The notes beneath the pieces were generated by a model, which had not been told where the DNA came from, did no database searches, and worked only from the letters and a program-made list of their open reading frames with translations. The position numbers were made by a program, and so were the translations under genes. From Candidatus Oxydemutatoraceae bacterium (GTDB lineage Bacteria; Pseudomonadota; Gammaproteobacteria; Poriferisulfidales; Oxydemutatoraceae), in assembly GCA_965220085.1 (NCBI GenBank), contig CBDCOZ010000003.1, positions 1,963,667 through 2,027,666 on the forward strand: DNA of 64,000 nt, given 5' to 3'. Of the stretch, positions 36,031-41,940 are shown piece by piece. The number at the start of each line of letters is the position of its first letter. Position 1 is the first letter of the stretch.

Positions 36031-36091
36031 AAAATATTTGGCAAGTAATTCTTATGTTGATATTTTAAGGCGCTTTGTGCGCAGGTGTTTG

Positions 36092-37006
36092 TTACTTTGC
36101 CGCTTGATAGGCCTGCTCTATCAAGGTCAAAATATAGGGCAAATCTTCTTGCTTGGCACAAAATACTTGCACATATCCGCCTTGTTGTCCCCCGCTTATG
36201 GAAATCTCCTTTGAAATCTGTTTCGGGTCATGTAATTTTTCCGGTGGAATCCTTAGCACGATTCTTATTTTTTTCTTCCGCAGCTCTATGAATGCAAAGG
36301 TAACTTGTGTTATGTACGAGACATAGTTTTTCCGTACCCTTTCTTCTATGCCATCGTCAAAATCAAGAATCTTTTCTTGTAATGCAAAAAACAGATTTTT
36401 TACCGGCTCATCCGCGGTACTCAAATGGTCATCGAGCGTATAAACCTTTATTTCTTTGCTGACACTCTCAATGGTCGCCTTGTTTTTAGAAGTGGTTTTG
36501 ATCGATTCCTTTGCATCGGATGAAAGCAACTGGTTGTATAAAATTGTGGAATTGTCGTAAGCCCTGACTTCCCACAACTCAATCGCTAAATCCCGGAAGT
36601 TGATGGCATTTTTCTGATAGGTAGTAAACCTTTGCGCCAGAAACAAAACTTTTGACTGCGACCAATCCACATCTTTACGCCCCAACTTCTCCTTGGTCTT
36701 CTCGTTGTATTCCAGAATGAAATCGGCCTTGTTGTTAAGCATTGCGGCGAGGTAGGAAAACCCTTGGTCGATGACACTGGAACTTCTATTCCGCTTGTAC
36801 TCGATGATGACAAAAGAACGGGTCTCTTCATCAAACGCGAGCGTATCGATGCGAAAGCTTTGCACGGGGAATTCCGTGCTGATAAACCGCAAGCCAAAAA
36901 CGGTTTCCAAATTACCCTCGGTTAATCTTTGGATGTCTCTTTCAAGGTCAATACGCTTTTCCTTTATCAGGGACAGCTTCTGTTTTTGTATATTAAAAAT
37001 TGCCAT
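36092..37006 (-). CDS. PD-(D/E)xK nuclease-fold protein of unknown function (NucS/DUF-like core IDTLAFDEETRSFVIIEYKR)
   Basis: D…E.K motif in the typical NucS-like context. Low-GC gene inside the R-M island. Confidence 0.5.
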   Translation of the reverse strand: MAIFNIQKQKLSLIKEKRIDLERDIQRLTEGNLETVFGLRFISTEFPVQSFRIDTLAFDEETRSFVIIEYKRNRSSSVIDQGFSYLAAMLNNKADFILEYNEKTKEKLGRKDVDWSQSKVLFLAQRFTTYQKNAINFRDLAIELWEVRAYDNSTILYNQLLSSDAKESIKTTSKNKATIESVSKEIKVYTLDDHLSTADEPVKNLFFALQEKILDFDDGIEERVRKNYVSYITQVTFAFIELRKKKIRIVLRIPPEKLHDPKQISKEISISGGQQGGYVQVFCAKQEDLPYILTLIEQAYQAAK

Positions 37007-37166
37007 AATTATTTCGCAGTGTGTCAGCCACTATAGAACAAAGACCCAAAGGCTTCCTTGCCGTTGCCTGTGTTGACCCAAGACACCATGTGCATAGCAA
37101 GTTGCGCCTCGTACCTCTCAATTACACTTTCGGTCATGTTCTCTTAAATAAAGCTTTCAATTCTTA

Positions 37167-37934
37167 TTATCTTATTCGTTTCCTAGCGATTTTTACATAC
37201 TCTTTGTCTTGCTCAATTCCAATCCATTCGCGATTGTACTTTTTTGCTACAAAGGCCGTGGTGCCACTTCCCAAAAACGGATCAAGAACTATGTCCCCTT
37301 TTCGGGAACTTGCCAAAATAATACGCTTCAGCATTTCTTCCGGTTTTTGTGTTGGGTGTAATGCACGCCCATTACCACCATGTAAGCGCTCCTTACCCTG
37401 CACAAGCGACAACTCCCAAAGATCACGCATTTGCTTAGGACTCCCATCCTTTTTCTTATCAGGATTTATTTCTTTTATTTTTTCGTAATCAAAAGTCCAA
37501 CCACTTCCTTTTACTGCCCAAACAACAAATTCTGTTGAGTGTGTGAACACTCGTCTTGTCATGTTTGGCATCGCATTTGTTTTATACCAAGTAATGAGGT
37601 TATTCACTTTGAAATCAAGCTGTTTCAAAACAATCATTACTTCTGCAACATTGTGGTAGCTACACGCAACATAAATTGAACCTTTTTCTTTCAGAACCTT
37701 ATCACACGCACCAAGCCACTTTCTTGTAAACTGCAAATATTCTGGCGCTGTCATCTTATCCCACTGCTCATTGACCATGTACCAATCACCACCAGTCTCA
37801 TTTCCTTTCCATTTCAGTCCATTTCCAGACAAGTTGTAAGGTGGGTCTGCAAAAATTAGGTCAATGGAATTCTCATCAACTCTCTTGTTGAGCACATCAA
37901 TACAATTCCCGCTGTAAATAATATTTGTTTTCAT
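37167..37934 (-). CDS. DNA methyltransferase, beta-class (N6-adenine or N4-cytosine)
   Basis: N-terminal DPPY (IFADPPYNL), C-terminal FxGxG-like LDPFLGSGTT. Confidence 0.8.
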   Translation of the reverse strand: MKTNIIYSGNCIDVLNKRVDENSIDLIFADPPYNLSGNGLKWKGNETGGDWYMVNEQWDKMTAPEYLQFTRKWLGACDKVLKEKGSIYVACSYHNVAEVMIVLKQLDFKVNNLITWYKTNAMPNMTRRVFTHSTEFVVWAVKGSGWTFDYEKIKEINPDKKKDGSPKQMRDLWELSLVQGKERLHGGNGRALHPTQKPEEMLKRIILASSRKGDIVLDPFLGSGTTAFVAKKYNREWIGIEQDKEYVKIARKRIR

Positions 37935-37937
37935 ATT

Positions 37938-39761: not shown

Positions 39762-39763
39762 AA

Positions 39764-41665
39764 TTATTTTGTTACTTCACAGTAGAAAATACGTTCCGCA
39801 TTATTCCTTCCGTTACTTTTTCCTGTTGTGAAGGCTTTGTAATCTTTTTCAAAAATTTCGACATCGCCCTTATCATTCAGGATTTGCAAAATGTCGTTAT
39901 CATGTATCCGTGCATTTGAACGTCCGTCTTTTGAATCTCCAGTGTTGTTATATGATAGTAAAATGTGTTTGCAATCGGCATCTCTTATCAAACCTGCAAG
40001 TGCACTCGTTGCGCTCTTGAGGCAATAATCGCTCTTGATGTGTGAACGAGCCATCTTTTTACTAATTCCAACAACTTGCGGCCTTTCCCATTCTGCAAGA
40101 TTTTCTAAAAGATGATATGCATCCGAGTATTGGCGCGAATTGTATGGCGGGTCAATATATAAAACATCACAGGAGATTTTTCGTATAAGTGTATTTGCAT
40201 CTTCTTTATAAATCTCATTATTTATGTTGCGTGAATAATCAATATCGGGAACAAGTAACTTTATTGGTTGGAGCATATCTAGCCTTTTACGAAAAGCGTC
40301 ATAATGCCCAACAGTATTTGCCACTTTATCAACTGCGTAAATAAGAGAACAAATCAAGAGATTTCTCTCATCTTTGCCTTCTATGCTTCTGTCAATCTCT
40401 TCTCTAATCACACCTATTTTCCTTGCATTTTCTTCTGTGAAGTATGTTCCGCCAAAGTGTTTTGAAAAATAATTTTCCTTGTCGCTTGGCAAATTGTTGA
40501 GATATTTTATTTTTTCAGAAATACTTTTTTGAGGCTCTTTGCTTACTCCCAAGAATGCTTGTAGGCAAGTATAGTTTGCAAAAAGAAAATCATTGGAAAT
40601 AATCTTTATGCTTGGGTTATTGAACCTTGCCCCGACAACACCGGTTCCCGCAAAGATATCGCAAAACGAGCCTACTAATCCGCACTTCTCGGAGATTATA
40701 TCTTCAACAAACCCGAGTAATTTATATTTATTACCTAAATAACGTCTGTTTTGAAGTTGAAAATATCCGTTTTTTGAACCCCGCGGTTGGAAATAATGCT
40801 TATAGTTTTTTTGAACACTAGCCCCATAAGCAGGCCTTTCAATTTCTAACAAATCAAAAAGTGTTCCTTGCGCTCCGTCCGCAACATAATCAAAACTTTC
40901 GTTTTGGTCTTTTAGTTTTTCGTAAAAACTAAAATCTCCTTTTGATGAAACGATAATAAAATCAATAACAGGTATTCCCATTATATTTCCCGCTTGCACG
41001 ATTTTCTCTACAACCTCAATATCCTTTTTACTGGGCAACGAATCGCCAGATGGATGATTGTGTACCAAAATTACACTCGCGGCATTGAGTTCTATCGCAG
41101 AATAAAAAATTTCTCTTGGATGAAGTAATGTCTTGTCAGCAAGTCCAATACTTACAACTTCTTTTCTCAACAAGACATTTCGTGCATTTAGATACAAACA
41201 AACAAGATATTCCTTTTTCTTACTTCGCAAATCATAGGTTAGTGAAGCAATATCTTGAGAGTTTTTTATCACAACCTCGTTTGTTTGATTGTCTGCATAA
41301 AACCTTTTAACGAGAGAAATTGCTGACGCAATTTGTAAGGCTTTGGCTTCGCCAATTCCTGCAACGCTTTTCAAGTCATCTACTGTAATATTCAAAAAGT
41401 TTTTACTAAATCTCTTGATAATTTGTCGTGAGAGCTGCTGAACATTTTTCCCTTTGATTCCACTTCCAAGCAGGATTGACAAAAGATCGCTTTTTGAAAG
41501 TGCCTCTGGACCTTTCTTGAGAAATTTTTCCCTTGGTCTATCAACTTTTGGAATATCTTTAATCTTTGCCATGTTTATTTCACTAATGCACTCAAGGGAT
41601 TTTTTCATTTTGCTTGCACGACTGAGAGAACACACCCAAAGCGTAATGGAGTTGTTGTCGTTCAC
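39764..41665 (-). CDS. Fusion protein: N-terminal RadC-like (HhH + JAB/MPN HNHPSGD) domain and C-terminal Dam-like (D12 class) N6-adenine DNA methyltransferase
   Basis: DRPREKFL…LSILLGSG…VAGIGEAKA…VILVHNHPSGDSLPSKKDIEVV is RadC. NRRYLGNKYKLL…FCDIFAGTGVVG…LYIDPPYN is Dam-like. The start is probably at MAKIKD (~41569). Confidence 0.8.
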   Translation of the reverse strand: MNDNNSITLWVCSLSRASKMKKSLECISEINMAKIKDIPKVDRPREKFLKKGPEALSKSDLLSILLGSGIKGKNVQQLSRQIIKRFSKNFLNITVDDLKSVAGIGEAKALQIASAISLVKRFYADNQTNEVVIKNSQDIASLTYDLRSKKKEYLVCLYLNARNVLLRKEVVSIGLADKTLLHPREIFYSAIELNAASVILVHNHPSGDSLPSKKDIEVVEKIVQAGNIMGIPVIDFIIVSSKGDFSFYEKLKDQNESFDYVADGAQGTLFDLLEIERPAYGASVQKNYKHYFQPRGSKNGYFQLQNRRYLGNKYKLLGFVEDIISEKCGLVGSFCDIFAGTGVVGARFNNPSIKIISNDFLFANYTCLQAFLGVSKEPQKSISEKIKYLNNLPSDKENYFSKHFGGTYFTEENARKIGVIREEIDRSIEGKDERNLLICSLIYAVDKVANTVGHYDAFRKRLDMLQPIKLLVPDIDYSRNINNEIYKEDANTLIRKISCDVLYIDPPYNSRQYSDAYHLLENLAEWERPQVVGISKKMARSHIKSDYCLKSATSALAGLIRDADCKHILLSYNNTGDSKDGRSNARIHDNDILQILNDKGDVEIFEKDYKAFTTGKSNGRNNAERIFYCEVTK

Positions 41666-41847
41666 GCTTCATAAGGCGTGAGATATGCACAAGTTTCAAT
41701 CGTTTCGTTTTTTTAATCAAAACCCTATCGATTTTACTCGTGAAAAGTTTGAACTTTAATCAAAAAAACGCCGCTGAACCTTCCTATAAGAAGAATTGAG
41801 CGACGCAACGAGTGGCACCATGCCGGAGATGTTGACGTTGTAGTAAA

Positions 41848-41940
41848 TGGCGGAGAGGGAGGGATTCGAACCCTCGATGAGGCTACAAACCCCATACTCC
41901 CTTAGCAGGGGAGCGCCTTCAGCCACTCGGCCACCTCTCC
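41848..41940 (-). tRNA. tRNA-Ser(GCU)
   Basis: 93 nt with a long variable arm, anticodon loop CTGCTAA and encoded CCA. Lies immediately at the edge of the low-GC island. Confidence 0.9.

Follow-up and report, generated by a model that had tools for sequence, protein, structure and literature searches.

Type IIS restriction-modification systems built around an endonuclease of the AlwI/MlyI/N.BstNBI family are well known. In the MlyI, PleI and AlwI systems the enzyme has one catalytic site and forms a homodimer on DNA, and R.BspD6I/BstNBI is a heterodimer of Nt.BspD6I and a small subunit, ss.BspD6I, which cuts the second strand. We analysed a stretch of 64,000 nucleotides (the window) from Candidatus Oxydemutatoraceae bacterium (GenBank assembly GCA_965220085.1, contig CBDCOZ010000003.1, positions 1,963,667 to 2,027,666 of the forward strand), in which a low-GC block adjoins a tRNA-Ser(GCU) gene. 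The locus is of a known kind, type IIS restriction-modification, next to an independent candidate defence nuclease, and it is ordinary in that respect. The new element is the RadC head fixed to one of its methylases, which is swapped with LexA or helix-turn-helix (HTH) domains in sister cassettes. The original prediction, made from the letters of the window, had described the block as one four-gene system with two extra nuclease/JAB components. We think instead, with a probability of about 0.8, that two units with different histories were acquired independently beside the tRNA-Ser(GCU) gene: an older nuclease of the PDC-S18 family and a mobile type IIS cassette with a RadC-headed methylase.

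The evidence for two units comes from the comparison with relatives. Contig L170 is 100% identical to window positions 41874-33246 (8629 bp) and represents the same organism. Contig L166, from a sister sample, shows 87% DNA identity over 4 kb, with amino acid identities to the window of 97% for a symporter, 81% for a PLD protein and 80% for the PDC-S18-type protein (hereafter S18). L166 carries the last 29 nt of tRNA-Ser, 139 bp, S18 and the symporter, and no restriction genes. In BLAST, L170 aligns to L166 at positions 1-48 and 4861-8629 only; the variable segment corresponds to window 37015-41826, which is 4812 bp long where L166 has 113 bp. When the two are aligned more sensitively, the junctions fall near 41812 and 37117 and may share a 5-nt microhomology (GGTGC/GGTAC). 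Because L166 has S18 beside tRNA-Ser without restriction genes, the island is composite, S18 being the shared, older resident and the cassette an indel. At this site S18 is older than the cassette or, at the least, independent of it. Weighing against this order of events, two genomes do not polarise the indel, and a deletion in the L166 lineage fits as well as an insertion here. The features of the locus are as follows.

36092-37006, minus strand: S18, a separate resident gene for a PDC-S18-type protein of 304 amino acids (PADLOC PDC-S18 PDLC04945, Pfam DUF5655).
37015-41826, minus strand: the three-gene restriction-modification cassette, present as a 4.8-kb indel (BLAST of L170 against L166).
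37167-37934, minus strand: M2, a beta-class N6-adenine methyltransferase of 255 amino acids (Pfam N6_N4_Mtase PF01555, E=1e-62, 212.5 bits).
37938-39761, minus strand: R, a type IIS endonuclease of the AlwI/MlyI/N.BstNBI family, 607 amino acids (Pfam RE_AlwI, E=6e-79).
39764-41572, minus strand: M1, a fusion of RadC and a D12-class N6-adenine methyltransferase, 602 amino acids (Pfam UPF0758_N, RadC and MethyltransfD12).
39770-40762, minus strand: D12 methyltransferase domain of M1, alpha-class and FokI/StsI-like (PADLOC MTase_II PDLC03373, E=1e-112).
40916-41269, minus strand: RadC-type JAB/MPN domain of M1 (Pfam PF04002, E=1e-35, 122.5 bits; RadC homologue 2qlc in the PDB, E=7e-23).
41339-41563, minus strand: UPF0758_N, helix-hairpin-helix DNA-binding part of M1 (Pfam PF20582, E=3e-22, 78.8 bits; helix-hairpin-helix match).
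41848-41940, minus strand: tRNA-Ser(GCU), a native host gene whose 3' end at 41848 faces the island (ARAGORN; Rfam tRNA, 60.4 bits).
41973-42161, minus strand: csrA, 62 amino acids, a host gene lying upstream of the tRNA (CsrA equivalog of NCBIfam, 97.9 bits, cut-off 73).
34666-36030: symporter of the CitMHS/Na-sulfate type, the left neighbour (Pfam).

The foreign character first attributed to the block is seen both in its composition and in its variable content between relatives, since L166 lacks the restriction genes. The GC content is 0.383 in 36040-41847 (0.377 in the segment 37015-41826), against 0.589 in 26000-36030, 0.545 in 41941-52000 and 0.554 in the whole window, so that the predicted drop from flanks at about 0.55-0.59 is real. 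The block consists of four open reading frames, all co-directional on the minus strand (36092-41665) as described at first, and lies downstream of csrA, adjoining the 3' end of tRNA-Ser(GCU); ARAGORN, Rfam and the CsrA equivalog model agree with that earlier placement. The domain calls made then were also correct: a RadC JAB domain fused to a methyltransferase, an AlwI-like endonuclease, a beta-class methyltransferase and a PD-(D/E)xK protein. The three restriction-modification genes are separated by gaps of 2-3 nt, against 160 bp between M2 and S18. Besides the genes, the cassette indel takes in non-coding DNA of 254 bp on the 5' side and some 50-150 bp of DNA on the 3' side. Promoter and terminator scans of the locus gave background levels. 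Comparison of csrA-tRNA-Ser loci among relatives had been suggested together with the original prediction, and it places the cassette outside the conserved neighbourhood. The lysC-csrA-tRNA-Ser order is kept in the gamma- and betaproteobacterial loci that were fetched, and the tRNA-Ser gene is 94.7% identical to that of L006, the nearest lysC relative. All 80 lysC-csrA-tRNA-Ser loci taken from other gamma- and betaproteobacteria lack the cassette; the best LysC matches in the scan of lysC contigs were 70-71% identical (Ca. Porisulfidus, Ca. Oxydemutator).

Our survey of the cassette covered about 85 unrelated loci. Five genome-scale contigs, about 75 of the 80 metagenome contigs and L178, the closest relative, all have M1 (RadC::D12), R (AlwI) and M2 (beta) in this order. 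Identity to the window ranges over 61-88% in M1, 47-78% in R and 65-89% in M2. DNA similarity between cassettes is confined to the coding region, from 41572-41587 to 37164-37173 in the window, and the cassettes have a GC content of 0.32-0.39 while their host flanks span about 0.40 to 0.49. The fusion protein forms a family of more than 120 clusters (73-100% identity) of about 602 amino acids and the same architecture, and many of its named carriers are metagenome-assembled genomes of Patescibacteria. A scan of a viral contig collection found no fusion, and none of the plasmids in PLSDB had one at ≥80% coverage; plasmid AlwI-family genes are at most 37% identical and match parts of R only. A gene for a 69-amino-acid XRE-type C-protein precedes M1 in 24 of the 85 RadC cassettes. 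In the window cassette we found no C gene or C-gene remnant, and its 275 bp of 5' non-coding DNA gave no trace of any other pseudogene either. Taken as a whole, the distribution is that of a widely travelling, horizontally mobile three-gene restriction-modification unit. At L001:5243-6735, about 3 kb upstream of a cassette, a BglII-family endonuclease is split into open reading frames of 111 and 81 amino acids beside an intact N6_N4 methylase; this looks like a decaying second restriction-modification system.

The 304-amino-acid protein matches PDLC04945 along nearly its entire length (E=1.2e-109, residues 1-300 on profile positions 1-301 of 302), and in Pfam it gives a DUF5655 match and a sub-threshold HSDR_N_2 match. 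Residues D54, E69, K71, Q81 and Y85 are invariant among its homologues. In its AlphaFold (AF2) model, with a predicted local distance difference test score (pLDDT) of 87.4, Foldseek matches the N-terminal part to NucS/EndoMS (2vld, 5gke) and Shedu (8ps5, 8ti9), and the C-terminal DUF5655 part to YjbR/DUF1801 proteins (2fki). The invariant D54/E69/K71 core and the NucS/Shedu-like model support the PD-(D/E)xK assignment made previously. The protein is thus similar to PDC-S18 by its full-length hidden Markov model match, and to NucS/EndoMS and Shedu SduA by its core and structural matches. It differs from NucS in the C-terminal part, which resembles small DNA-binding proteins of the YjbR/DUF1801 type and not the NucS N-domain. 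We regard it as a candidate defence nuclease of the PADLOC PDC-S18 family, for which no mention was found among the papers searched.

The same gene had been counted as a component of the restriction system. If so, the four genes would form one integrated system in which the 304-amino-acid protein is a partner of R, for example cutting the second strand as ss.BspD6I does for Nt.BspD6I. The best PADLOC model of R is labelled 'nicking endonuclease' and no small subunit of BspD6I type is encoded, both of which would suit such a partnership. S18-like genes (30-32% identity) also lie inside the operon, in the order C, S18-like, M1, R, M2, in L087 and L129-L131. These make a looser functional link between the cassette and S18-type nucleases conceivable, a point against two independent units. 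At L126:4673-6799, directly downstream of a cassette apparently without an endonuclease gene, a GmrSD type IV enzyme carries a C-terminal DUF5655. It could be read in favour of the four-gene system too, and it implies that DUF5655 travels with different nuclease heads. However, S18 is missing from more than 90% of the roughly 85 cassettes, L166 keeps it at tRNA-Ser without the cassette, and the 160-bp spacer contrasts with the tight gaps inside the cassette. The S18 protein, tried as a BspD6I-type small subunit, was rejected for want of any sequence match to ss.BspD6I at E≤1. It belongs to a single-gene family, PDC-S18, with more than 6000 homologues in varied, unrelated contexts, and the slots flanking cassettes hold other single-gene defence candidates: a PDC-S06 AAA_13 ATPase in 15 of 64 downstream slots, and PDC-S14, PDC-S02, OLD/GajA or DUF6119, the GmrSD::DUF5655 fusion being a further changing occupant. 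We find a single four-gene system highly improbable.

Two independent units would make the locus a small composite defence islet on the 3' side of the host tRNA-Ser(GCU) gene. Its first unit (36092-37006) would be a stand-alone candidate defence nuclease of the PDC-S18 family, shared with one related species and low in GC in both genomes (0.42 and 0.39). Its second unit (about 37015-41826) would be a self-contained, mobile three-gene type IIS cassette.

How did the cassette arrive? The absence of an integrase and of a direct repeat of the tRNA end, remarked on at the outset, is borne out: Pfam scans of all open reading frames at 33.2-45.1 kb gave no integrase, the window holds no second copy of the tRNA-Ser 3' end at ≤3 mismatches, and the repeat search returned only chance-level repeats. 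The junction lies beyond the tRNA and not within it. Furuta, Abe and Kobayashi (2010) reportedly described bare restriction-modification insertions and substitutions in genome comparisons, and the cassette looks like one of these rather than an integrase event. A striking feature is that in at least eight unrelated genomes (L001, L002, L089, L092/L093, L094, L098, L100 and the window) M1 has a co-oriented tRNA-Ser gene no more than about 1 kb upstream, with anticodon gct, cga, tga or gga. A different tRNA takes this place in five more loci (tRNA-Pro, tRNA-Asn or a Tyr-Thr-Trp cluster). Serine accounts for 8 of the 12 non-redundant tRNA-adjacent cases, window included; by estimate, roughly one tenth of tRNA genes are tRNA-Ser. 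Among themselves, the tRNA-Ser genes adjoining cassettes show 61-85% identity, and the DNA upstream of them is unrelated. In L094 (128-230) a C-protein gene is truncated at the tRNA-Ser junction, with the last ~30 codons left before M1. Neither the window nor L001-L005 showed a recombinase in the vicinity of the cassette (for integrases in L001-L005, within 5-8 kb). This adjacency to tRNA-Ser without a recombinase hints at a tRNA-anchored route of acquisition.

Alternatively, the full 5.8 kb could be what remains of a classical integrase-borne island at a tRNA-Ser attachment site that has decayed, its integrase and far repeat having been lost later. The position at the tRNA 3' end and the recurrence of tRNA adjacency in the 12 loci would fit, and so would what immediately follows the tRNA in two loci: a partial copy of the tRNA-Ser 3' end, direct in L092 (7607-7700) and inverted in L002 (7246-7330), as past integrase events would leave. 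The window itself, however, has neither integrase nor repeat, and L001-L005 have no integrase within the distance searched. The comparison with L166, moreover, puts the left junction about 20-35 nt past the tRNA-Ser 3' end, where the variable DNA begins, and leaves the three restriction genes as the only variable content. We consider a decayed integrase island unlikely, and keep to a resident S18 joined by a separate cassette.

The endonuclease R starts 2 nt past the M1 stop codon and matches PF09491 with 266.5 bits against a cut-off of 23.1, over profile positions 2-441 of 441. It also matches the PADLOC REase_II model PDLC03393 (E=2e-133) over its full length. Both matches place it in the AlwI family of type IIS enzymes, where it had been put before. 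Its similarities to the MlyI/PleI/AlwI systems are the full-length RE_AlwI match, the size of about 600 amino acids and the adjoining N6-adenine methylases. It differs from them in being only about 25% identical to the sole family member of solved structure, and in that protection here is split between an alpha and a beta methylase, the alpha one with a full RadC at its N-terminus. That solved structure, N.BspD6I (2ewf), is matched at residues 92-571 (E=4.5e-29), and R residues D460, E473 and E486 align with D462, E475 and E488 of the 2ewf_A chain. We take these three to be the catalytic residues D456/E469/E482 of N.BstNBI/N.BspD6I, assuming that the chain numbering is offset by a 6-residue tag.

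With the R.BspD6I/BstNBI heterodimer R shares this best structural match and the 'nicking endonuclease' label. It differs in that there is no small-subunit gene (about 186 amino acids): no such open reading frame occurs in 36.0-41.9 kb, and no extra open reading frame is conserved in or next to the ~85 cassettes. The small subunit ss.BspD6I (2p14) matches only the C-terminal domain of R itself, residues 437-581. Because no BspD6I-type small subunit is encoded, R would be either a homodimerising cutter like MlyI and AlwI, or a nickase. We expect R to bind to about 5 bp of asymmetric sequence and to cut a few bases to one side, probably by transient homodimerisation, again since the small-subunit gene is absent. 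MlyI and AlwI are homodimerising cutters without a small-subunit gene, as at this locus (PMC3017599).

Two methyltransferases had been expected beside a type IIS endonuclease, and there are indeed one of alpha class (D12) and one of beta class, both N6-adenine enzymes by sequence. As both have a DPPY motif, each should place N6-methyladenine on one strand, and M1 and M2 would in this way each protect one strand of the site. M2 has DPPY at residues 30-33 and FxGxG at 220-224. It matches CcrM (6pbd, E=1e-56) and shares with CcrM/M.HinfI (GANTC) the DPPY motif, K118, E135, Y93/H94 and the N-x-M-P-N core of Loop-45. It differs in lacking the C-terminal DNA-binding domain, and in having lost Arg44, Pro45 and Gly39/Gly40 of Loop-2B, the residues by which CcrM reads G1 and N3. 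The NCBIfam CcrM equivalog NF050803 gives 257.8 against a cut-off of 830, on profile positions 3-247 of 350 only. M2 is a beta-class methylase and not a CcrM orthologue.

Regarding the recognition sequence, pooled flanks of cassette-bearing loci give an observed/expected ratio (O/E) of 0.87 for GAGTC, a weak depletion (rank 30 of 512, z = -2.4), versus 0.97 for GGATC. This weakly favours a GAGTC-like over a GGATC site for R. Two points weigh against it. In the host part of the window (1-36040, 41850-64000) GGATC has an O/E of 0.57 and GATC of 0.60 (200 observed, 331 expected), while GAGTC stands at 0.98; the GGATC signal is, for its part, confounded by the general depletion of GATC. In addition, a GANTC specificity is not assumable for M2, which has neither the CcrM Arg44/Pro45 loop nor the C-terminal domain. 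The most under-represented 5-mers in the same host part are CCWGG (O/E 0.43) and GGWCC (O/E 0.35). Together with the GATC depletion, they suggest that restriction systems recognising those sites exist, or once existed, elsewhere in the genome. In a sister cassette of LexA type, a gene for a DpnI-like (methyl-GATC-dependent) endonuclease lies at L171:7512-8282 and overlaps the end of the beta methylase by 4 nt. Because the DpnI-like gene is coupled to it, this implies that the L171 cassette does not make Gm6ATC, a conclusion for that cassette only, whose endonuclease stands at 24-29% identity.

M1 is the unusual component. Its mechanical open reading frame runs over 39764-41665 (633 amino acids, from GTG at 41665), and homologues start at the position matching the ATG at 41572, which gives 602 amino acids. 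The N-terminal module passes the cut-offs of the NCBIfam models PRK00024 (210.2 bits against 180) and TIGR00608 (201.9 against 133.85). It is a full-length canonical RadC with both the UPF0758_N and JAB domains. The JAMM motif is intact (E154, H171-x-H173, S181 and D184, in the numbering of the 602-residue protein). In a set of 52 fusions E154, H171, H173 and D184 do not vary and S181 reaches at least 90% conservation, and a set of 171 gives the same picture. Mean column conservation over the 171 fusions is 0.86 in the helix-hairpin-helix, 0.82 in the JAB domain, 0.70 in the linker and 0.82 in the methylase. Because the module is conserved at least as well as the methylase and the JAMM residues are invariant or nearly so, we consider the RadC module to be under selection as a catalytic unit, and it is an integral, conserved part of the methylase. 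The JAB domain had at first been called unexpected. It is no oddity of this locus, for the RadC::methylase fusion is a large conserved family that always occurs in the same three-gene cassette.

The methylase part of M1 scores 113.4 bits with PF02086 (cut-off 22). Its motifs are in the alpha-type order, with FxGxG (F307-G309-G311) N-terminal to DPPY (474-477), and both are invariant. It had been called Dam-like. The adenine methylase part of that description holds, and Dam does not: the Dam subfamily model TIGR00571 gives 24.5 against a cut-off of 114.85, and the domain falls in the FokI/StsI-like D12 group. The closest non-fused D12 relatives are 43-55% identical, and the nearest are stand-alone proteins of about 340-380 amino acids or tandem double methylases. 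An AlphaFold model of the 602-residue fusion was discarded (pLDDT 50.7, predicted template-modelling score 0.39).

A search with the D12 domain alone against 1.84 billion representatives returned five groups of close relatives: the RadC fusions, the stand-alone methylases, the tandem doubles (of the FokI/StsI/LlaI kind), proteins with other heads, and proteins with the helix-hairpin-helix only. The other N-terminal heads are LexA_DNA_bind with Peptidase_S24 (P0122), S24 alone (P0167) and HTH_3 (P0144, P0160, P0166); in P0121 the helix-hairpin-helix is kept and JAB is missing. Among these occupants of the N-terminal slot, HTH_3 is joined to a methyltransferase and S24 to a double methylase. The fusion of LexA_DNA_bind, Peptidase_S24 and D12 has at least 85 clusters, many of the named ones from Patescibacteria, and the cassette of LexA::M1, RE_AlwI and N6_N4 methyltransferase occurs in two independent contexts. 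Such sister cassettes were seen in L171-L177, for instance at L174:5001-9287. Identities of L174 to the window are 47% for the endonuclease, 65% for M2 and 57% for the D12 domain, which puts it level with the remoter RadC cassettes. The LexA heads retain the A-G cleavage site, the GxSM serine and the LKR lysine.

Methylases with a DNA-binding head are known: in SsoII/EcoRII-type methyltransferases an N-terminal HTH regulates their own operon. M1 is similar to these, and to C-protein control, in its DNA-binding head, in the HTH_3::methylase relatives of the same D12 clade and in the C gene of part of the cassettes. It differs in that its head, RadC here and LexA plus S24 in the sisters, combines DNA-binding with a peptidase-type domain and is not a plain HTH. 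With the known RadC (UPF0758/YicR) fusions, to helix-hairpin-helix, ArdC, DnaG or DinG, it shares a full canonical RadC with an intact JAMM motif. It differs from them in that RadC is here joined to a DNA methyltransferase within a restriction-modification operon and is swappable with LexA or HTH. RadC- or LexA-fused methylases in restriction operons were not found in the literature searched, to which REBASE and subscription journals did not belong. As for RadC itself, its original phenotype was reportedly reassigned in 'RadC, a misleading name?' (2008).

Because LexA, HTH or the helix-hairpin-helix alone fill the same slot, we infer by displacement logic that the RadC module would be a DNA-binding, proteolytic or regulatory head and not a second nuclease. 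This is at odds with Iyer et al., who used another domain displacement to infer a nuclease role for RadC (PMC3239186); the grounds in their 2011 and 2017 papers were the fusions to helix-hairpin-helix, ArdC, DnaG and DinG and the fact that RadC stands in a position equivalent to that of an exonuclease (PMC3239186, PMC5512222). A 2025 review states that RadC-like DinG is unstudied, that the role and catalysis of the RadC-like domain need study, and that its only structural neighbours are metalloproteases (PMC11981726). The separate C-protein gene of 24 of the 85 cassettes speaks against a purely transcriptional role of RadC. Following Iyer et al., the fusion could be a combined nuclease-methylase that cuts the second strand, or trims or repairs nicks made by the AlwI-family enzyme. 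The invariant JAMM metal site and the lack of a small subunit would agree with it. Considering the heads that replace RadC, we judge this improbable.

RadC could instead have no catalytic or regulatory role, and act as a non-specific DNA-binding or dimerisation handle for processivity, as the C-domain of CcrM does. The helix-hairpin-helix-only variant P0121 and the lack of that C-domain in M2 are compatible with a mere handle, and stand-alone methylase versions at 63-77% identity are common. But a handle would not require E154, H171, H173 and D184 to be invariant, nor the JAB domain to be as conserved as the methylase, and LexA, the alternative occupant, retains all its self-cleavage residues. 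A handle therefore seems a doubtful explanation as well.

Returning to a regulatory head, RadC would couple the activity of the methylase or of the operon to the state of the DNA. It is tempting to propose, quite tentatively, that RadC works as a LexA-like sensor-regulator: with its DNA-binding head on the DNA, the metalloprotease-type site would process the protein itself or a partner according to the state of that DNA and so set enzyme levels. The state sensed would be single-stranded DNA, nicks or damage, and the head would act during establishment or attack. The self-cleaving LexA head would do the same job in the sister cassettes.

Some further observations concern the surroundings of the islet and the rest of the window. 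Genes for a MetA-pathway-like outer-membrane protein and a DUF2946 protein (42310-43943) lie between lysC (43903-45144) and csrA, and in all fetched gamma- and betaproteobacterial loci in which csrA was detected it follows lysC after about 80-370 bp. A tRNA-Arg(ACG) gene follows tRNA-Ser(GCU) in about half of the related loci; it is absent at window 41700-41847 and also in the closest ones, L006 and L007. ARAGORN reports a tRNA-Gly(acc) of 91 nt at 21358-21448, which is below the Rfam tRNA gathering score and probably a false positive. At 30845-31388, a 193-bp stretch of L166 matches three adjacent, slightly overlapping sites of the window with about 75% identity, a tandem repeat of about 180 bp within a gene.

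In summary, our results indicate that an apparently single low-GC island can be split, by comparison with a relative, into a resident defence gene and a later cassette, which is a lesson of method for islands of this type. R may have an unreported specificity or nicking behaviour, useful as a reagent. What is unusual is a complete RadC, with its JAMM residues intact, as a fixed part of a methylase whose cassette family is both very large and highly mobile. The cassette offers a compact three-gene context for RadC, in which mutants should affect methylation, operon expression, establishment toxicity or protein processing. If the LexA-like role is true, the function of RadC, a near-universal bacterial protein, could for the first time be studied in a defined genetic context and with a simple assay.

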